This document shows, in pieces, positions 55,866 through 64,000 of a stretch of DNA of 64,000 bases. Each line of letters starts with the position of its first letter. Positions within the stretch are counted from its first letter, which is position 1. The notes under the pieces were generated by a model. The model saw nothing but the letters and a program-made list of their open reading frames with translations, searched no databases and was not told the origin of the DNA. The translations under genes were made by a program, and so were the position numbers. The DNA comes from a virus (taxonomy: Duplodnaviria; Caudoviricetes), in the IMG/VR virus record IMGVR_UViG_3300025608_000006; one strand, given 5' to 3'.

Positions 55866-56600
55866 ATCCGAAAGAGCGCGAAGCGCCCTGCGCCAGATTT
55901 TCCAAGAAGCCGCGAAGCGGTATGCGCTTTTTTAGATACTAGCGTATACCCAAAGCACCCAATACAAATGGTGTCTAGCAAGCTCACAGCAGCCCGTACA
56001 CACACGGTAATACTAACTGCGAGTCAACGTAAACCTAGTGTCCGAACACAGTGCTAACTGCGCAACTGTACAGTGCAAGTCTGACTCAAACACTAGTGAA
56101 TCTTCTGTTGGCTGAAAACACTTTATATTATTGTTGATGAACAGTTCTATTGACAGTGCATGCACTAGCGCATCAACAGCAACACTGTTGGTAATAGTAT
56201 GAAAGTTGAATTTGAGCGTGTGCTGTTGAGTGTTCATACAGTATTTACACAGTAGACTTACAGTGTGCTCACAGTAGTTGTACACTAGGAGTGAGGTTCG
56301 TTTAAGCTACACTAGGATGTACTGTGTACATACACGCTCGTTAGCACTCACGTGTGTGTTCGCTTCGCGAGTATAACAGTTGGAAAAGGGTTCTAGCAGA
56401 TTAAAAAAATTTCTGCGCAAAAAATTTTGAGATTGATTTCTATTGTGTGTGGAGGTTTTGCACACTAGCGAAAAAGGTTCTTGTAGAGTAGAAAATCTGC
56501 GCTGCGGTTTCATTAAGCATAGTACTTATAGTTTCAACCAGGTGATTTCTTAACCCCCACCCCCCGATGAAAAATTTTTTTTATTTTTTTTTATTTGACA
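55866..56600. other. Non-coding convergence zone with GCGAAGC mini-hairpins, ACTAG repeats and C/T/A homopolymer runs
   Basis: See findings; + strand genes end at 55865 and - strand genes end at 56663. Confidence 0.5.
56013..56236 (-). CDS. Possible small late ORF
   Basis: TAAATA-CTGT-ATG at 56236 (late-promoter/leaderless layout); 74 aa; coding status uncertain. Confidence 0.3.
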
Positions 56601-56633
56601 AAAAGAAAAAAGGAACAGTGCGAACACTGCTCC
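56600..56633 (-). terminator. Rho-independent terminator ending the early array
   Basis: Minus strand GGAGCAGUG-UUCG-CACUGUUCC followed by UUUUUUCUUUUU. Confidence 0.85.
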
Positions 56634-56662
56634 CTCTCTTCACTTCCATCCCGAGAAGTTAG

Positions 56663-57028
56663 TTAGTCTGCTCTACTGCCTGCGTAAGCTGTGAAGCCTG
56701 CTGCTGAGAACACCTTAGCTGCTGCGTATGCACCCTGCTCCTTGGTGTACATACACTGTGTGCCTAGCCCACTGGGGTTCCATATGCTGTATGCTCCTGA
56801 GTAGTCCTTCTCAAAGCCTGCTGCCTTCATACGCTTGCCCAGCTTGGTGTTGCCTTTGATGCCGTAGATGTTAACCCAAGCAAAGCCACAGTAGCCTAGC
56901 TCACCGTTAGCAGCAATGCTGGCTTCAGCTGCATCACGTGCATGCTGTAGTGCCGCAGCCTTAATAGTTTGCAGGTCCTCTACAGTGAGGTCGTTGAGTA
57001 CAGTAGTTGATGTGTTGATAGTAGTCAT
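56663..57028 (-). CDS. Early hypothetical protein (CGFAWV motif)
   Basis: Own promoter cassette; AAGGAG RBS. Confidence 0.8.
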   Translation of the reverse strand: MTTINTSTTVLNDLTVEDLQTIKAAALQHARDAAEASIAANGELGYCGFAWVNIYGIKGNTKLGKRMKAAGFEKDYSGAYSIWNPSGLGTQCMYTKEQGAYAAAKVFSAAGFTAYAGSRAD

Positions 57029-57090
57029 TTGCTATGCTCCTTAGCGTTAATGTATATACAGTATAGCACCTGTGTGCTGTGTGTCAACCT

Positions 57091-57363
57091 CTAATATTCG
57101 TATACAGTTGGCATTGTCAAGCCCTGGCCTGCACAGTAACGATCCAGTTCCTTGATCACTCTGCCATAGTAGTTGTACTTGTTCTGTGCTTGTGTAGCTG
57201 AGATCTCTCCATCGCAGTGTAGGTTCTCTGGGCTTAGGTCACTGTCTAGGCTACGTGCTAGATCGTTTACTTGTGTTTGGCTAAGTGGGAAGTTGATCTG
57301 CGGTGAGTTAAAGAAGCTACCCCAGGTGTTCTTCTGGTCGATGTATGCTTGTAAGTTTTTCAT
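57091..57363 (-). CDS. Early hypothetical protein (LSPENLHCDGE motif)
   Basis: Cassette promoter and GAGGGCAC RBS; stop abuts the next promoter. Confidence 0.8.
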   Translation of the reverse strand: MKNLQAYIDQKNTWGSFFNSPQINFPLSQTQVNDLARSLDSDLSPENLHCDGEISATQAQNKYNYYGRVIKELDRYCAGQGLTMPTVYEY

Positions 57364-57428
57364 AGTGTGCCCTCTTTGTTTAACTTATAATACTACTATA
57401 ACACCAGTTGTTGAGTTTGTCAACCGTT

Positions 57429-58214
57429 TTAGTAAGAAATTTTTGCCTCATCCAAGCGAGCAGTGATAGCATCGCCGAACTGCCAACCTTCTGGCATAGT
57501 GGTGCGCCATCCCAGCTCAGTGTCAAGACGCAGTGCATCCTTGGGATCGATATAAGCAATAGCAAGATTGTCTTTGAGCATCTCTGCAACTTGTTCTACA
57601 CTAGCTCCTGACTGAAACATTTCAACACTATGCTTGAACAGTAGATCACAAGGTACAATGTGCTCACGGTATGTGCGAACATCTGTAGGTTCATTAATAG
57701 TAATATACCGATCCACGCAGTCGAACAAGTGACGATGTAGCAATATTGTATTACCATGTTTAGTCACATCTTCAATAAACCTTGCTACGATTTCAAAGTA
57801 TGGTTTGCCAGCACTATCAAATTTCTTCCAACTGCTGGCACCAGCTGGATCCAACAAGTCACAGTCGCTGATCAATTCATACAGTGCAAGGAAGTCATCA
57901 TCTAGATTGTCGGTTTCGTAGCGCAGGTTCTTTTGTGAATCGTCTACAGCAAACCCATTATCAGTTAGGTACTCGACTACAATTGGGCGACTCTGATCAC
58001 CTTTGCCTCCTGGTAGTCCAACTCCAATCATCAATCGATTGCGAATGTAAAGAACTTCCAATACAACACCTGATTTAAGTGTTTGAGTATAGCAACGCTT
58101 GCCTTGACGGTCTTGTTTACCGCTACCTTCTACTCCTTCGATACTAAATCGGATACTGCTATCCTTTTGATTGATACGAGCGATAAAATCTTTGATACGT
58201 TCTTGAGGAGTCAT
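57429..58214 (-). CDS. Early hypothetical protein (261 aa)
   Basis: Start reassigned to ATG 58214 downstream of the cassette promoter; REHIVPC motif. Confidence 0.75.
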   Translation of the reverse strand: MTPQERIKDFIARINQKDSSIRFSIEGVEGSGKQDRQGKRCYTQTLKSGVVLEVLYIRNRLMIGVGLPGGKGDQSRPIVVEYLTDNGFAVDDSQKNLRYETDNLDDDFLALYELISDCDLLDPAGASSWKKFDSAGKPYFEIVARFIEDVTKHGNTILLHRHLFDCVDRYITINEPTDVRTYREHIVPCDLLFKHSVEMFQSGASVEQVAEMLKDNLAIAYIDPKDALRLDTELGWRTTMPEGWQFGDAITARLDEAKISY

Positions 58215-58282
58215 CTTGTTGCCCTTTGCCCTAACTGTTATATACAGTATAGCATCTATCTGCTGATTGTCAACCATTATTC

Positions 58283-58530
58283 AAAAGAAAAAGCCCGGAG
58301 CGTATTGGACGAGGGCACATCCTGCTCCGGGCTATCCTAAAGGTTATAGAGCGTGAGGGCATACGCTGTTCTATAACCTGTTACCGCACTGTTCTTGGTG
58401 ACAGCTTCGGCTTATTGCAGTCTAGGGACGAGGGCACATCCTTCGACTGTTTGAGCTAGCGCGAACGAGGGCACATTCGTTCTAGCTCAGGTTGGACTGC
58501 ACCGCAGGGTGCGCTACAGTCCTACAGTGT
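58283..58530 (-). ncRNA. Structured 3' RNA with four (R)UGCCCUC-loop hairpins and a terminator
   Basis: Four stem-loops with different stems and the same loop (+ coordinates 58311-18, 58355-62, 58430-37, 58467-74); last hairpin followed by UUUUCUUUU on the - strand. Confidence 0.75.
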
Positions 58531-58539
58531 TGCGGAGCT

Positions 58540-59541
58540 CTATGCTCGACGCATCACCGTATTCTCTGCCATCGCTTCCCACTTGTCGGGGAAAGCGCCA
58601 GCTAGGTCTGCTACCTTGAGCACTGTGCGCAGCGATAGCTCACGCAGCTTGCTCTTGTTGATCTCTACGAAATCCATGATCTCCGTCTTGACTTCTTCTG
58701 ACAGTTTACGGTCATCCAACATGCCATCTTGTACCACTTGCTTGATGCGCAGTACTTTGTCCTTGTCACTATCAATAGTCAAGTCCATGTAGTGACAGCG
58801 GCTCTCCAGTGCTTCCAAGTGCTCACGCAGCTTGCCTTTTACCTTATCGAACTTCAAGTTAGTGATAAAGATAGCACTAGCTTCGAACTTGAACTTGTCT
58901 GGCACACCTTCGTTGCGCAGCTTGAAGCTGTCAGTGTTCCAGTGGATCCAACGATTCTTCTTTGAGTCCAATGCTGCTTTCAAGATGTTCAAGCTTAGGT
59001 CATCTTGGAAGATGCTGTCACAGTCATCGAACACCACTACCTTGCCTTTGTCTGCCATGTTGAACAGTTTGCAGTAGAGTCCAATTGGGCTCATAGCGCC
59101 TTTGATAACTTCGTGTGTCTTGCCTGCACCTAGTGTTTCCATAGTTGCATAGCGATCCAGCACTTCTTCAACACCATGGCTCTTGCCCACGCCCGGAGGA
59201 CCTGAAACGATCATAGCGCGAACGTTTCCTTTCTTTACCGCTTTGGTCATGTCTTTGAGCATATCAAAACGTTCGCGGATGCGCTCTACAATCTCAGCGT
59301 CTGACTCCTCAGGCAAATCGTTCTTCTCTGCTTCACCGACCAACTCGTAGTCCTCCGGGCTGCTGCATTTGATCTTGATGTTGCGGTTGGGCAAGCCTGT
59401 CACAGGAGTTGCGTCAACTGTGACTGCGCCGCCGCTGGTTCCCATAGTAAACTCTTTGGCCATTGGGAATACAATACCGCTCATGTCTGTTTCTTTTCCA
59501 CGTAGTCTATAAGTACCATTTACAATCTTAATGTTCTGCAT
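58540..59541 (-). CDS. AAA+ ATPase
   Basis: SGPPGVGKS Walker A, VVFDDCD Walker B, FITN, ALESRC. Confidence 0.85.
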   Translation of the reverse strand: MQNIKIVNGTYRLRGKETDMSGIVFPMAKEFTMGTSGGAVTVDATPVTGLPNRNIKIKCSSPEDYELVGEAEKNDLPEESDAEIVERIRERFDMLKDMTKAVKKGNVRAMIVSGPPGVGKSHGVEEVLDRYATMETLGAGKTHEVIKGAMSPIGLYCKLFNMADKGKVVVFDDCDSIFQDDLSLNILKAALDSKKNRWIHWNTDSFKLRNEGVPDKFKFEASAIFITNLKFDKVKGKLREHLEALESRCHYMDLTIDSDKDKVLRIKQVVQDGMLDDRKLSEEVKTEIMDFVEINKSKLRELSLRTVLKVADLAGAFPDKWEAMAENTVMRRA

Positions 59542-59609
59542 GTGTTTGCCCTCATGTGTTTGTTTAACTTATATACAGTATAGCATCAATCTAACGTTTG
59601 TCAACCACT

Positions 59610-59786
59610 TTATGTAAATATTAGATAAAGAATTCCAAGTACTGCAATCACCACAGCAGGTGGTACCAGTGTGAAGATCAAGCTGTGAACACACTGTTCC
59701 CAAAAGCCCACGTACTCGTTGCAGTTGTGACACTGTGGAGCAAAGAAGTTCTTATCCATTTGATGACAGTTTGGACATACGCTCAT
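59610..59786 (-). CDS. 58-aa zinc-ribbon plus transmembrane peptide (not in ORF track)
   Basis: MSVCPNCHQ...QCHNCN...PPAVVIAVLGILYLIFT; AGGAG RBS. Confidence 0.65.
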   Translation of the reverse strand: MSVCPNCHQMDKNFFAPQCHNCNEYVGFWEQCVHSLIFTLVPPAVVIAVLGILYLIFT

Positions 59787-59787
59787 C

Positions 59788-59925
59788 TTATAATACTCCT
59801 ACAAAGGATGGTTGAAGGACAGCACCTGCCCACATAAGTCCTGCGCCAAGCCATATCAGTATTGCACTCAGCAAGCCTGTTTGCCACAGCACCAAAAGGA
59901 TTACTAGTTTGATCAGCGTTCCCAT
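59788..59925 (-). CDS. 45-aa membrane peptide
   Basis: MGTLIKLVILLVLWQTGLLSAILIWLGAG...; AAGGA RBS before ATG 59925. Confidence 0.6.
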   Translation of the reverse strand: MGTLIKLVILLVLWQTGLLSAILIWLGAGLMWAGAVLQPSFVGVL

Positions 59926-59926
59926 C

Positions 59927-60202
59927 TTAGCGATCCTTGCGATCAATAGTGATCGTTCCCTGCATCCATGATACAATCAACTCACGGTCTTCATCTGAGA
60001 AGTCTTTAGCAGTTGTACCAAACGTAGCGCCAAAGTGTGTGAGCGCATTGCCCACATGGCTTAGGTTGTTGAGTGTGCGCAAGCCATCTTCAGTCACAGG
60101 GCCAAGTCCGTGAATCTTACCGTACTCTTCTGAGTAGTTCATCATCTCACGTCCGATAGTAGCCAGTTGCTTCTGTTCAGTTGTTGCTTCGAAAAATGCC
60201 AT
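59927..60202 (-). CDS. Early hypothetical protein
   Basis: Cassette promoter and AAGGGCAA RBS. Confidence 0.75.
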   Translation of the reverse strand: MAFFEATTEQKQLATIGREMMNYSEEYGKIHGLGPVTEDGLRTLNNLSHVGNALTHFGATFGTTAKDFSDEDRELIVSWMQGTITIDRKDR

Positions 60203-60265
60203 TGTGTTTGCCCTTTATCTAATTGTTATATACAGTATAGCTTCACTTGCGGAGTTTGTCAACCC

Positions 60266-60313
60266 CTAATTTGGAAGTCCGCCATTCCAGTCATCACAGG
60301 GATCATCATACAT
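60266..60313 (-). CDS. Possible 15-aa micropeptide
   Basis: MYDDPCDDWNGGLPN; AGGAGG RBS, TAATG coupling, TAG inside the next promoter repeat. Confidence 0.45.
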   Translation of the reverse strand: MYDDPCDDWNGGLPN

Positions 60314-60531
60314 TATTCGTCCTCCTGTTCACGACCTTGTGCAAAGTCCAACAAGTCTGCTGCCAATGCTGCTGCTTGTGCGCGAGTCAACTGCACCCAG
60401 CTAAACGGGCCGCCTTCGCTCCAGCTGCCTACTTTGCTCTGTGTCAATTGCACACAAGTGCCTCGGTCGCTGCCTCCAAAGAAGCGTGTCATTGTTACGC
60501 CTTCTGCGTGTGTTTTCAATTCTGTTGACAT
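60313..60531 (-). CDS. Early hypothetical protein
   Basis: Cassette promoter and GAGGAGCAC RBS; FFGGSDRGTCVQLTQ. Confidence 0.75.
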   Translation of the reverse strand: MSTELKTHAEGVTMTRFFGGSDRGTCVQLTQSKVGSWSEGGPFSWVQLTRAQAAALAADLLDFAQGREQEDE

Positions 60532-60595
60532 CGTGTGCTCCTCTAATGTCTAACTTATACATACACTATAGCACCACTGTGCTAGTTTGTCAACC

Positions 60596-60667
60596 ACAAA
60601 AGTAGCAGGAGGAGTACTTTTTTTGATCGAGGGCACAATCAAATGTTCCTCTACTCCTGCTATTTGT
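60596..60667 (-). ncRNA. Fifth GUGCCCUC-loop hairpin in the tRNA-operon trailer
   Basis: Minus strand UUGAUU-GUGCCCUC-GAUCAA on top of a UAGCAGGAG/CUCCUGCUA stem. Confidence 0.7.
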
Positions 60668-60765
60668 CCGGGCTCTGGGGCAAGTCTATTAATAGTCCCC
60701 AGCGCCGACAGTCGCTATGTGATCTGTGCTTCACGGTTATTAGCACGAGCGCTGTCTACTCAGTT

Positions 60766-60842
60766 TGGCCTCCCCTGCAGGATTCGAACCTGCGACCCAC
60801 AGCTTAGAAGGCTGTTGCTCTATCCAGCTGAGCTAAGGAGAG
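60766..60842 (-). tRNA. tRNA-Arg(UCU)
   Basis: CTCTCCT acceptor, ACAGC-CTTCTAA-GCTGT anticodon arm, GGTTCGAATCC, encoded CCA. Confidence 0.95.
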
Positions 60843-60846
60843 TATA

Positions 60847-60923
60847 TGGTGGGCCCACCGAGACTCGAACTCGGAACCTACGGATTATGAGTCCGGTGCT
60901 CTAACCAATTGAGCTATAGGCCC
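60847..60923 (-). tRNA. tRNA with CAU anticodon, probably Ile2 (lysidine) rather than Met
   Basis: GGGCCTA acceptor, CTCATAA loop, GTTCGAGTC, CCA; the GGGCC start resembles bacterial Ile2. Confidence 0.85.
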
Positions 60924-60929
60924 TGTCTT

Positions 60930-61014
60930 TGGTGCTCCCTGTCGGACTTGAACCGACATGCCTTGCGGCGACAGATTTTAAGTCTGTTGTGTATACCTAT
61001 TCCACCAAGGGAGC
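60930..61014 (-). tRNA. tRNA-Leu(UAA)
   Basis: GCTCCCT acceptor, ACAGA-CTTAAAA-TCTGT, long variable arm, GGTTCAAGTCC, CCA. Confidence 0.95.
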
Positions 61015-61028
61015 GAATTCTGTTTTAC

Positions 61029-61187
61029 TTATGCCCCATCATCCATTTCTAATTCAAACTCTGAAGCCATATCTTCTTCAATAGCTTCAGCAAGTGCTTC
61101 ATACTTGGCTCGCAGTTCGCTTACCTGCCGCAGCGACAGCACACGATCCAAGTCTTTGATAACATCTTGTAGTGTAATATAATCCAT
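61029..61187 (-). CDS. 52-aa acidic protein (not in ORF track)
   Basis: MDYITLQDVIKDLDRV...ELEMDDGA; TAATG coupling. Confidence 0.6.
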   Translation of the reverse strand: MDYITLQDVIKDLDRVLSLRQVSELRAKYEALAEAIEEDMASEFELEMDDGA

Positions 61188-61384
61188 TACTGCACCCATA
61201 CGTGGTTGAATTTGGTTGGAAGGTTATCACAGCTGAAGATCTCATCTGTGTAGTTAACGACTTTGACGCACTCATTTGTTGCGTAGCTAACATGGACATC
61301 TGGCGCACTCAACGCTGAGTTCATTGCGTATCCTAGTCCTGCTAACATAGTCCCTGCAAACGCGATAGTAAAAACTGCTTTCAT
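61187..61384 (-). CDS. Early protein with N-terminal signal/TM segment
   Basis: Hydrophobic N-terminus, two Cys; cassette promoter. Confidence 0.75.
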   Translation of the reverse strand: MKAVFTIAFAGTMLAGLGYAMNSALSAPDVHVSYATNECVKVVNYTDEIFSCDNLPTKFNHVWVQ

Positions 61385-61458
61385 TGTCGTTGCCCTTTTG
61401 CTTAACTGTTATATACAGTATAGCGCCGAAACGCTATACTGTCAACACCTAATTTGCC

Positions 61459-61707
61459 TTATTCAGCAAAAACTTTTGCACGTGATCCTGTGATGTCACG
61501 AGCACTTACTGCATAGCGAGCCTTGCCCGTTGTAGCAGTGTCCACACGCACGTTCAATCCAGCAGCTCGCAAGTCGCTGATTCGTGCAGTTAGATTTTGG
61601 ATTCCGAAACGTGCCTTTGCATCAGCAGCAGTGATTGTCTTGCCAGTGCCACGCAGGTAAGTTTCAAGGAATGCAGTTTGGTTTGATTTAATAGTAGTAA
61701 AGCTCAT
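61459..61707 (-). CDS. Winged helix-turn-helix protein
   Basis: LETYLRGTGKTITAADAKARFGIQNLTARISDLRAAGLNV (HTH_39-like pattern). Confidence 0.75.
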   Translation of the reverse strand: MSFTTIKSNQTAFLETYLRGTGKTITAADAKARFGIQNLTARISDLRAAGLNVRVDTATTGKARYAVSARDITGSRAKVFAE

Positions 61708-61806
61708 AATATGTACCCTTTAGAAAGTTTAGTTTAAAGTTTGCCTATCAACACTTTTTGCTCCAGTGTCTATATAGTATAGCACCTTTGCGGGATATGT
61801 CAACCC

Positions 61807-62001
61807 CTAATTGAACATATCGTCCCAAGCATCTTCAGTGATGCCAGTCTTGATGAACTCACGCTCACCAGCTGTTAGTTGGGGGAATGCATCCTGTACC
61901 AACAGTTTGCCTTCAAAGTAGGCTTCAACCTGCTCGTAGGTTACGTCAAGATCCATGGTGTTCTCTTGGCCGTTGAATGGATTAGTACGTGTGATTTTCA
62001 T
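61807..62001 (-). CDS. Early hypothetical protein
   Basis: VQDAFPQLTAGEREFIKTGIT; cassette promoter. Confidence 0.8.
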   Translation of the reverse strand: MKITRTNPFNGQENTMDLDVTYEQVEAYFEGKLLVQDAFPQLTAGEREFIKTGITEDAWDDMFN

Positions 62002-62066
62002 AGTGTTTGCCCTTTTCCCTAACTGTTATATACAGTATAGCATCAATTGAGGATTTGTCAACCTCT

Positions 62067-62264
62067 TTATGCAGTTTTAGTGCCAGTCTTTAGATTATAT
62101 TCAAAGCGCAGACCGCCCAGTACATCACGACAGCGGATGTAATCATAGTAGCCTTGTGCCTTCATTGCTTGATGAACAGCCTTGCCATCCGCAGCGTTTG
62201 ATACAGTGTCTACCCACTGCTCTGCACCACCGTCTTTGATTCCGAATATTTTGTAGCTTCTCAT
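62067..62264 (-). CDS. Early hypothetical protein
   Basis: Cassette promoter with doubled AGGGCA. Confidence 0.75.
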   Translation of the reverse strand: MRSYKIFGIKDGGAEQWVDTVSNAADGKAVHQAMKAQGYYDYIRCRDVLGGLRFEYNLKTGTKTA

Positions 62265-62326
62265 CGTATTGCCCTTTGCCCTAACTGTTATATACAGTAT
62301 AGCACACTCTACGGATTTGTCAACCC

Positions 62327-62482
62327 CTAATTGTCACTAACAATAAATTCACGCTCTTCTGGCAGGTATGCTATCAGCACATCTTTGGGCACTCGTTGCA
62401 GCATCTCGTAGAGTGCAGTTGTGTCCCGATCTTCGAGGTCGTTCTCTATCTGGTGAATCACTTCGTCCCACAGGTCCATCAT
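62327..62482 (-). CDS. 51-aa protein (not in ORF track)
   Basis: MMDLWDEVIHQIENDL...FIVSDN; AAGGAG RBS; TAG inside the next promoter repeat. Confidence 0.65.
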   Translation of the reverse strand: MMDLWDEVIHQIENDLEDRDTTALYEMLQRVPKDVLIAYLPEEREFIVSDN

Positions 62483-62760
62483 AGCGCATACTCCTTATTG
62501 GATTTCAACTGCCACTTCTCTAACACAGGCAAGCCGTATTCATCTTCGTCCACAACCACATAGGCAACTGTCTTCTTGACTGTGCCATAACGGTAGCCAG
62601 TCATGCCAGCAACACCGCCACCACCTACCCATATCTTGTGCAGCGTGTCCTCATTGCAGTTGTTCAACGGATCATCGTTGACACTATACTCGAAGTAATT
62701 GCCTGTGTCCTTCTCAACGAAGCAACCTATTGGATCTTTGGTGTAGGTGTAGTATGCCAT
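62479..62760 (-). CDS. Early hypothetical protein
   Basis: RYGTVKKTVAYVVVDEDEYGLPVLEKW; cassette promoter. Confidence 0.8.
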   Translation of the reverse strand: MAYYTYTKDPIGCFVEKDTGNYFEYSVNDDPLNNCNEDTLHKIWVGGGGVAGMTGYRYGTVKKTVAYVVVDEDEYGLPVLEKWQLKSNKEYAL

Positions 62761-62859
62761 GTCTTGCCCTCATTGCCTAACTGTTATATACAGTATATGC
62801 TCTAATAGGGGATCTGTCAACCATTATTTGGAAAAAAGATCCCCTTTAGAATCAATAGC

Positions 62860-63426
62860 TTACAAGCCTGTGGGTGCTAGGTTTACTTCTTCGTCTTCAT
62901 CCTCTTCTTCTTCCATTTCCTCATACTCTGCAAGACGCTCGTCTAGAGCATATTCGTCCACAAGATACTCTGGGATCATGTTGCGAACAGTGTCTGAGGT
63001 TGCACCTGAATAGTCATAGTGGTCGTCAGCACCTTCTGAATCCCAGTAGCCAACGAAGCACATACCGCCTTCTTCGTAGTATGCTTCTAGGTATACGCCG
63101 TCCATGTCATCACAGAACGCTGAGTAAGCGTCAATGGGCGGGCTCCAAGCCGAATCAAACCAACCTGTGATCTCACTAGTGCCGTCACCGTTGTCTGTGA
63201 ACTCAAGACCTTCAGTATCAACATCCCACTTGGTCCCCCAGTTAGTGACACACCAGTCATACCAGTTAGGCCCGTCACTAGGAGCAGTTGTCCCTTCTAG
63301 TTCCTTAGGCATAGGAATCATTGCGTTCAACAAGCCGCTGCCTTCTTGATTAGCGTCTTCCCACAGTTCCTTGATAGTCTCTGTGGAACCTTTGATTGTG
63401 ATTGAGTTGTTGCACCAGTTAGGCAT
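62860..63426 (-). CDS. MPNWCxN-family (DUF1281/YubB-like ferredoxin-fold) protein
   Basis: MPNWCNN, WYDWCVTNWGTKWD, FDSAWSPP, YYEEGG. Confidence 0.75.
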   Translation of the reverse strand: MPNWCNNSITIKGSTETIKELWEDANQEGSGLLNAMIPMPKELEGTTAPSDGPNWYDWCVTNWGTKWDVDTEGLEFTDNGDGTSEITGWFDSAWSPPIDAYSAFCDDMDGVYLEAYYEEGGMCFVGYWDSEGADDHYDYSGATSDTVRNMIPEYLVDEYALDERLAEYEEMEEEEDEDEEVNLAPTGL

Positions 63427-63577
63427 AGTCAGTCTCCCCCATAAGTTCTGTATCTACAATATCGGAATGTTCAAACGAGTAATCACACTCGCTCATGATG
63501 TCCTGGATGTCAGCGTCCCTAAGGACCTCCAACGCCACTGTGACATAAACTGTCTTGGTGTTGTCAGCGCCTGCCAT
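63419..63577 (-). CDS. 52-aa acidic protein (not in ORF track)
   Basis: MAGADNTKTVYVTVALEV...GETDYA; GGAGG RBS; overlaps both neighbours. Confidence 0.6.
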   Translation of the reverse strand: MAGADNTKTVYVTVALEVLRDADIQDIMSECDYSFEHSDIVDTELMGETDYA

Positions 63578-63789
63578 TAGCAGTCCTCCCCAAATGCGTC
63601 ATACAGTTCTGTCAAGTAATCAACGTCTGGCTCATCGTCTTCGAAGAACCGCTCGCTCAACTCATTACAGTCAAGCATATCCTCAACGTCATCGTTGCTC
63701 ATATACTTGAGCGCCATAGTCAGCATGTCTTCTGCTGACACCATGCCGTTCTCAACCAACTCAAGTGCGATATCTCTGTAGTTTGTCAT
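63577..63789 (-). CDS. Early acidic hypothetical protein
   Basis: ATG 63789 after GAGGGCAT RBS and cassette promoter. Confidence 0.75.
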   Translation of the reverse strand: MTNYRDIALELVENGMVSAEDMLTMALKYMSNDDVEDMLDCNELSERFFEDDEPDVDYLTELYDAFGEDC

Positions 63790-63863
63790 TTGCAAATGCC
63801 CTCTGCTTTGTTTAACTTATATATACACTATAGCACCGAATGCGCTATGTGTCAACCTCTTTT

Positions 63864-64000
63864 TTAAGCTATAGCTTCTTCTTTTGTTTTGCGATGATAG
63901 AACGCTTCCAAGTCTACGCAGCCGTCTACTTCAAGACCTGCGAGCAGCTGGGTGCGTTCTTGTTCATCGAATGCTTGATGATATTCATCCGGAGTATATT
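63864..64000 (-). CDS. 3' end of a small early ORF (truncated by window edge)
   Basis: ...YTPDEYHQAFDEQERTQLLAGLEVDGCVDLEAFYHRKTKEEAIA-stop just above the 12th promoter. Confidence 0.55.
   Translation of the reverse strand, partial: YTPDEYHQAFDEQERTQLLAGLEVDGCVDLEAFYHRKTKEEAIA

Follow-up and report, generated by a model that had tools for sequence, protein, structure and literature searches.

A conserved hairpin loop complementary to early ribosome-binding sites at the end of a tRNA operon in an uncultured myovirus

The question raised by positions 60596-60667 of this DNA is why a hairpin at the end of a phage tRNA operon should display the same loop as a group of hairpins behind another early gene. 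The window, meaning the whole 64,000 nt stretch that was analysed, is DNA of an uncultured myovirus with T4-like replication genes and a G+C content of 39.5%; its products include a large terminase, a tail sheath protein, a UvsX-like recombinase, a DnaB-like helicase and an AAA ATPase. Numerous relatives occur in IMG/VR, as well as in runs from marine, estuary and salt-marsh sources. Among GenBank phages no close relative was found, matches at the DNA level being limited to tRNAs and the ATPase being less than 60% identical.

The trailer of the early tRNA operon

The early cassettes are arrayed on the - strand from approximately 64000 down to 56600. There are 12 near-consensus sigma70 promoters in this array, one per cassette, of which the promoter upstream of the tRNAs (Table 1) most likely drives an operon of two small ORFs, three tRNAs and the trailer. 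Scanning the - strand from this promoter down to 60593 detected no additional strong promoter and no terminator-like site. Rfam gave a weak RsmY match at 61417-61523 (- strand, 21.8 bits, E 0.048, far under the gathering score), which overlaps an early promoter and leader and is probably a chance similarity.

The trailer itself (60594-60765, 172 nt) is a composite of a structured domain of about 95 nt and a terminal loop hairpin. The hairpin starts 104 nt and the motif 130 nt past tRNA-Arg, and no promoter or terminator separates the end of the tRNA (60766) from the end of the hairpin (60603), which corresponds to the position of a tRNA 3' external spacer. The architecture set out in a preliminary description of this DNA is hence what is found: the last tRNA, a structured trailer and a terminator-like hairpin follow one another without interruption, and the -35 box of the next promoter comes 10 nt after the hairpin. 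The occurrence of a loop hairpin behind the tRNA operon is confirmed, as are the other facts given in that description.

The outer stem is formed by UAGCAGGAG (60662-60654) paired with CUCCUGCUA (60611-60603). Inward of it lie a UA bulge, a GAG/CUC helix, an internal loop and the apical stem UUGAUU/GAUCAA, the last of which had been described as closed by a U-G pair; this pair is present, with the refinement that RNAfold adds a G-C closing pair above it, so that the open loop is UGCCCU (60630-60635). UGCCCU(C) is unpaired in both the minimum free energy (MFE) and centroid folds. The 77-nt hairpin has a predicted energy of -26.2 kcal/mol (z = -4.1 relative to shuffles), and the complete trailer is similarly structured (z = -3.95 relative to shuffles). 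The hairpin ends in a U-run, UUUU at 60601-60598, preceded by C. As a terminator it offers a 9-bp stem with six G-C pairs, then C-UUUU-G-U, and it was left uncalled by a consensus terminator scan, having a loop of more than 8 nt and fewer than five T in eight positions. The covariance models of Rfam 15, applied to 56000-64000 with E values up to 1, matched the tRNAs and gave no match for the hairpin or the trailer.

A separate feature of the outer stem (60603-60662, - strand) and its homologues is that the 5' arm resembles a Shine-Dalgarno sequence (GGAGUAGAGG; GGGAGU.GAGCAG in relatives), while the 3' arm, (U)GCUCCUCCC, resembles an anti-Shine-Dalgarno sequence. UGCUCC within this 3' arm is the complement of a minor leader tag, GGAGCA.

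Comparison with two relatives, L003 and L074, indicates that the first domain of the trailer is a conserved spacer that travels with tRNA-Arg. Its core of 48-49 nt (trailer positions 41-88) is 87-92% identical to the counterparts in these relatives (L003:4136-4240 and L074:66-175). The element comprises two hairpin domains, and its ACUAUUAAUAGACUU loop region is invariant. The consensus fold of the three sequences has 25 pairs, seven of them with compensatory changes, and no Rfam match was obtained for this spacer. As it is situated between tRNA-Arg and tRNA-Leu in L003, tRNA processing would excise it at both ends, like the species 1 and 2 RNAs of T4; its location after tRNA-Arg also parallels that of these stable RNAs.

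Table 1. Positions of the features discussed, in window coordinates except for the sister clade
Feature	Position	Strand	Basis or remark
Early sigma70-type promoter, TTGACA-17-TATACT	61417..61445	-	sequence scan
tRNA-Leu(UAA), tRNA-Met(CAU), tRNA-Arg(UCU), CCA encoded in each	60766..61014	-	ARAGORN; Rfam tRNA 60-72 bits; sequence
tRNA-Arg, last of the operon	60766-60842	-	ARAGORN
Conserved structured spacer (~95 nt), first trailer domain	60668..60765	-	comparison with L003 and L074
Terminal trailer hairpin: 9-bp outer stem, GAG/CUC, internal loop, 8-bp apical stem, C-UUUU tail	60596..60667	-	fold
Loop word GUGCCCUC, proposed anti-RBS seed	60629..60636	-	motif count
Promoter of next early cassette, TTGACA-17-TATAGT with TG extension	60565..60593	-	10 nt past trailer hairpin
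Ribosome-binding site GAGGAGCAC of next gene (ATG at 60531)	60535..60543	-	sequence
GTGCCCTC copies	60629-60636, 58467-58474, 58430-58437, 58311-58318	-	motif count
One-mismatch copy ATGCCCTC	58355-58362	-	motif count
Main array: four same-loop hairpins 3' of the AAA ATPase gene, the last a strong terminator	58283..58530	-	
Best predicted target: ribosome-binding site GAGGGCAC(A) of gene 57363..57091	57367..57374	-	duplex -16.6 kcal/mol
Sister-clade tag and hairpins	about 50-900 nt after ATPase gene		L135, L143, L156-L160, L163, L165, L101-L125

An invariant loop on varying stems

The motif GTGCCCTC is present in five copies in the window, against an expectation of 0.64, and this number was reached in none of 100 shuffles. 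The four copies on the - strand and the ATGCCCTC variant are all flanked by inverted repeats of 4-7 pairs. The earlier suggestion that the trailer carries a fifth copy of one loop therefore stands, these being exact or near copies, all five in hairpin loops of the early strand. The sole copy on the + strand, at 57367-57374, serves gene 57363..57091 as its ribosome-binding site, reading GAGGGCAC on the - strand. Just two of the 12 early promoters have a stem-loop before them, namely the ones at 60593 and 58273. The last early terminator, at about 56606-56639, has the plain UUCG loop that had been reported for it.

Relatives were gathered in three ways: by the ATPase gene, which is located between the two motif sites, by a 16-mer common to two of the array hairpins, and by ATPase alignment. 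In all clade-A relatives the main array has been kept behind the ATPase gene, the number of its hairpins being between three and five in the window and these relatives. UGCCCUC is invariant in 41 distinct hairpins from trailers and ATPase 3' UTRs, and the stems covary: in this set, whose rows were selected for at least three flanking pairs, the three stem pairs beside the wobble pair, at 98-100% pairing, include 3-4 pair types, giving a covariation score of 0.65, compared with 0.20 after shuffling and at most 0.12 when slid. At least three in-register flanking pairs accompany 39 of the 63 distinct transcript-strand copies of TGCCCTC in relatives, versus 14 of 175 on the opposite strand. The heptamer is limited to the early region in the large contigs of relatives, and the ATPase gene and the tRNAs are the only places behind which copies on the hairpin strand are seen, the extra copies having been checked in a 275-kb contig, where those on the + strand prove to be ribosome-binding sites of - strand genes, not hairpins. 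In cultured phages with an ATPase homologue (Aeromonas phiA8-29, Vibrio VAP7 and Cronobacter LPCS28), only plain hairpins were found behind this gene.

Two further features of the region behind the ATPase gene were observed. A CUCCGC word is conserved after the stop codon, at 58520-58545 (- strand) in the window and in eleven relatives (L005, L012, L015, L016, L018, L019, L021, L026, L031, L032 and L037). In many relatives the ATPase stop codon falls within the first GCCCUC hairpin (for instance CGCUAAUGCCCUCAGCG), so that ribosomes terminating there would open it.

Relatives retain the three tRNAs upstream of the ATPase gene, in the orders Leu-Met-Arg, Met-Arg-Leu or Arg-Leu-Met. The preliminary description had made its proposal depend on the motif recurring at homologous positions in related phages, and a GCCCUC-loop hairpin does follow the last tRNA, be it Arg, Leu or Met, in 11 of the 24 distinct IMG/VR trailers (window, L003, L009, L012, L016, L018, L030, L032, L065, L074 and L096). 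In each of the seven trailer hairpins for which a single-sequence fold was computed (window, L003, L009, L012, L016, L018 and L032), the MFE structure has GCCCUC in an apical loop. Outer stems are homologous and covarying in the window, L003, L012, L018 and L032, according to an alignment from which only the outer-stem result was taken, its L074:1-10 row being mis-specified; inner stems are unrelated in the window, L009, L018 and L074, with GCCCUC retained. In the other 13 trailers the hairpin is missing and the last tRNA leads directly into the next promoter, which implies that the hairpin is dispensable. Around half of the trailer hairpins end without a U-tract (L009, L012, L016, L030, L032, L065 and L096), and tails of U5-U6 are found in the homologues from L003, L018 and L074. 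Given the hairpins without a U-tract, termination alone is insufficient as an explanation, and the feature that is conserved is the displayed loop.

The tRNA clusters of these relatives also vary in other ways. Among L003-L032 the tRNA orders are rotations of one cycle, with Met-Leu-Arg in a few, a distribution that suggests tandem duplication and loss. In L017 a trailer hairpin of the window type is reduced to its 3' half, beside tRNA fragments; within L017:5211-5425 an 11-nt inverted repeat (AGAATACATAT / ATATGTATTCT) surrounds tRNA-Arg, and two tRNA 5' fragments lie upstream. These remnants look like traces of recombination inside the tRNA cluster. A further conserved element, containing AUCCAUUAUAACA and the palindrome GGTTGTCAACC, lies past the trailer hairpin at about 60-160 nt from the last tRNA in L009, L012, L016, L030, L032 and L065, and is absent from the window.

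Complementarity of the loop to early leaders

The loop word UGCCCUC is the reverse complement of GAGGGCA, a tag of the early leaders. AGGGCA is found 4-8 nt before the ATG in nine of the 12 early leaders, two such boxes being present in the cassette that follows the main array, and all four of the - strand GAGGGC sites that precede an ATG belong to early genes. A loop duplex of -9 kcal/mol or stronger is predicted at 10 of 24 early ORF starts, compared with two of 43 + strand genes, and none of 200 shuffled loops had a better average duplex energy than the real one. At the best predicted target, the site of gene 57363, GAGGGCACA forms a 9-nt perfect partner of UGUGCCCUC. As an anti-Shine-Dalgarno element would, the unpaired C-rich loop word complements the early sites with specificity relative to both late genes and shuffled loops. 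The CCUC-GAGG part of this complementarity would arise with any Shine-Dalgarno site, and the trailer loop, at 6 nt closed by a G-C pair, is a small seed.

Within clade A the tag and the loop are nearly invariant, so covariation inside this clade is uninformative. Two of its members, L017 and L020, are mild counter-examples: their leaders mostly read GAGGGA or GAGGGU while their loops are still GCCCUC, leaving 5-6 pairs. The ATPase of a sister clade (clade B) is 46-64% identical, and the early-leader tag there is GGAGCGA, nearly all copies of which lie 9-17 nt before an ATG (eight of eight copies precede an ATG in L159). The hairpins behind the sister-clade ATPase read CCG-AUUCGCUCC-CGG, in which UCGCUCC is the exact complement of GGAGCGA. 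That two different 7-mers should each be matched by their own loop is hard to explain except by RNA-RNA pairing. This joint change of tag and loop is limited to the hairpins behind the ATPase gene: no such loop hairpins were found in sister-clade tRNA trailers, which have ordinary terminators or none.

Presence of the trailer in RNA data was also assessed. Taken alone, it is represented by 35-82% of its sampled words in eight RNA runs (X25-X31 and X22) from at least six studies, a figure that speaks for presence only; for the 2.9-kb region, the best RNA run contains 27%. Four metatranscriptomes (X17, X20, X21 and X22), examined as assembled contigs whose ends are not readable, show no excess over the trailer. 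Of these four, only X22 covers the trailer, and there its bin does not rise above the adjacent ones, which counts against an anti-RBS role for the trailer. The depth over the tRNAs in metatranscriptomes derives from other organisms, and the trailer bin is low. An exact 197-nt contig in X21, at depth 33, covers the main array and is only a hint.

Proposed role, alternatives and known systems

The reading favoured here, at a probability of about 0.5, is that the trailer RNA is co-transcribed with the tRNAs and bears an anti-RBS loop, whose partners are the translation start sites of early genes. The hairpin would be the 3'-terminal stem-loop of an early transcript comprising two small ORFs, tRNA-Leu, tRNA-Met, tRNA-Arg and a structured trailer of 170 nt. 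As CCA is encoded and neither a promoter nor a terminator precedes the trailer, maturation of tRNA-Arg must sever it from the transcript; host 3' processing, presumably by RNase E and then exonucleases, would cut behind the CCA, and the trailer would remain as a separate RNA protected by its strong structure and terminal hairpin. Its apical loop, UGCCCU, could then pair with the private GAGGGCA tag on most early leaders, with UGUGCCCUC as a wider pairing loop if the weak U.G and G-C pairs open, and the trailer would join a pool of identical loops from the ATPase 3' UTR array. The most likely result would be that 30S binding is limited or that the mRNAs are marked for decay, producing a feedback or timer on translation of the early class, an RNA counterpart of RegB at T4 GGAG sites. 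From the sequence, its predicted fold and its comparison with relatives we infer the processing and release of the trailer, its stability, its pairing in the cell and the direction of its effect on translation; excision of the tRNAs would probably also yield a small RNA that controls early-gene translation.

Several of the same observations can be read as a device acting only in cis, in which the loop pairs with the next cassette's ribosome-binding site some 90 nt downstream in read-through transcripts and silences these, leaving translation to messages begun at the promoter in between. The same logic is known for T4 lysozyme, soc and gene 49. It fits the order of loop, promoter and ribosome-binding site at both places (60636/60593/60543 and 58318/58273/58227), and the two AGGGCA boxes in the cassette behind the main array. 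Nevertheless, this account is unlikely: the site after the trailer hairpin, GAGGAGCAC, is an imperfect partner that pairs with the loop only by bulging an A (duplex energy -12.8 kcal/mol), the units on both sides are early and provide no temporal reason for such silencing, arrays of three to five hairpins exceed the needs of one site, and the next promoter in L009, L012, L016, L030 and L032 is set apart from the hairpin by over 100 nt of other conserved RNA. It is similarly improbable that the loop has no function of its own and that the structure is an ordinary operon-end hairpin, a terminator or 3'-end protector in a recombination module of the PeSL type, the loop word owing its retention solely to descent from the ATPase array or to gene conversion by it. 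The GC-rich 9-bp stem, the C-UUUU, the -35 box 10 nt further on and the U5-U6 tails of L003, L018 and L074 would all be expected of it, and PeSL cassettes, in which a stem-loop lies upstream of a near-consensus early promoter followed by a Shine-Dalgarno site and start codon, are known in T4-like phages (PMC4122927). The window shares with these the combination of stem-loop and early promoter amid small variable early genes. However, PeSL have conserved stems and are found at many cassettes, whereas the window hairpins occur at two places only, most of the 12 cassettes having no stem-loop, and have varying stems and an invariant loop, which sets them apart from PeSL. Retention of GCCCUC where inner stems are unrelated, the missing U-tracts and the failure of a simple terminator scan to call the hairpin weigh in the same direction, and the UUCG of the final early terminator indicates that the loop word is unnecessary for termination.

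Recognition by a protein would account for the family in another way. Multiple hairpins with an identical loop and free stems have the classic appearance of protein decoys, and the constant association of the array with one gene, that for the AAA ATPase, might also point to a phage or host RNA-binding protein for which the match to the tag is secondary; decoys of the CsrB/RsmZ type and lambda boxB are precedents for protein-bound hairpins. This explanation leaves both the exact complementarity of loop and tag and their joint change in the sister clade unaccounted for, and no RNA-binding domain was found in the proteins encoded beside the hairpins, making it quite unlikely. Loops and leader boxes are, in addition, one duplex word in opposite orientations, such that a single protein binding double-stranded DNA could read TGCCCTC/GAGGGCA either way in leaders and hairpin regions, and an HTH protein is encoded nearby at 61459-61707. 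Since recognition of a duplex needs no covarying flanking stems, the leader boxes lie at Shine-Dalgarno distance from the ATG, and the strand bias is strict, such a DNA site is very improbable.

Pairing of a tRNA-trailer loop with early start sites combines two known kinds of element, anti-Shine-Dalgarno loops and tRNA-trailer RNAs. The closest parallel for the latter, raised in the preliminary description, is the E. coli 3'ETS-leuZ, the trailer of glyW-cysT-leuZ that is freed by tRNA processing (RNase E) and base-pairs, sponging RyhB and RybB via an Hfq-bound single-stranded ARN-rich stretch (bioRxiv 10.1101/2021.04.25.441314). The analogy holds for position, the window RNA lying between the last tRNA of its operon and a terminator-like hairpin, as it does in 10 relatives. 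It does not extend to the sponge role, since the loop complements the ribosome-binding tag of early mRNAs. There is no sequence likeness and, unlike in leuZ, a hairpin loop forms the proposed seed; mRNA ribosome-binding sites are its predicted partners, and release of the trailer is presumed. A freed trailer RNA is plausible, and its partner is likely to be mRNA rather than sRNA.

A parallel within phages is provided by T4, in which tRNA-Arg is at 71173-71247, rnaD (species 2) at 71053-71171 and rnaC (species 1) at 70908-71046; the window trailer likewise lies directly 3' of tRNA-Arg in a phage tRNA cluster. Comparison of the T4 rnaC/rnaD region with Rfam identified tRNAs only, and the window contains no match, at up to three mismatches, to the 31-nt rnaD core that five T-even phages share without change. 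T4 rnaD (L086, NC_000866) does contain AUGCCCUC in a possible UGAUG/CAUCA hairpin, which could be an anti-Shine-Dalgarno-like loop or chance. At this position JS98, VR20, SF and ECO4 have only a C-rich YCCCYUUA, and the 5' half of rnaD is invariant. As a loop shared with the window, AUGCCCUC was rejected because it is not conserved in the relatives of T4, and it is treated as chance plus a C-rich tendency.

Pyrimidine-rich words that complement ribosome-binding sites are also familiar from S. aureus RNAIII and Rsa RNAs, the UCCCC motif of the icaR 3'UTR and the Cuckoo and CcsR RNAs, where they are located in hairpin loops or the 3' UTR, often in multiple copies. Those RNAs address generic GGAG/GGGA sites of chosen targets. 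The window loop, by contrast, reaches 3 nt beyond the Shine-Dalgarno core and into a tag that is specific to a single temporal class of genes, and tag and loop change together between clades. Inactivation of early messages as a class at the ribosome-binding site is carried out in T4 by RegB, at GGAG with an A-rich 3' context (PMC3014915), although RegB is a protein nuclease helped by S1 and the proposed reader of the tag here is an RNA loop. A literature search on the motif words and on phage anti-Shine-Dalgarno small RNAs found nothing relevant. What is new is the temporal-class-specific tag, the loop that co-evolves with it and the wiring of one copy to the phage tRNA operon.

The tag and loop system has been seen so far only in uncultured marine and aquatic phages, and its extension to T4-type phages in general, with a tRNA-linked trailer loop as a class-wide switch that shuts down tagged early genes and tag and reader co-evolving between clades, is a tentative and rather doubtful proposal. 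The pairs could become orthogonal translational switches in synthetic biology. If the reading is true, such a system would be cheap for the phage and programmable, with two clades representing two tag and loop pairs; the dose of the loop placed behind the tRNAs would be coupled to tRNA output; and a first testable idea would be available for T4 species 1 and 2 and similar companion RNAs of phage tRNA clusters. The timing of phage early genes is known to be set by proteins such as RegB and the sigma and anti-sigma factors. A private ribosome-binding tag read by the phage's own RNA loops would, if true, be a principle that differs from this.
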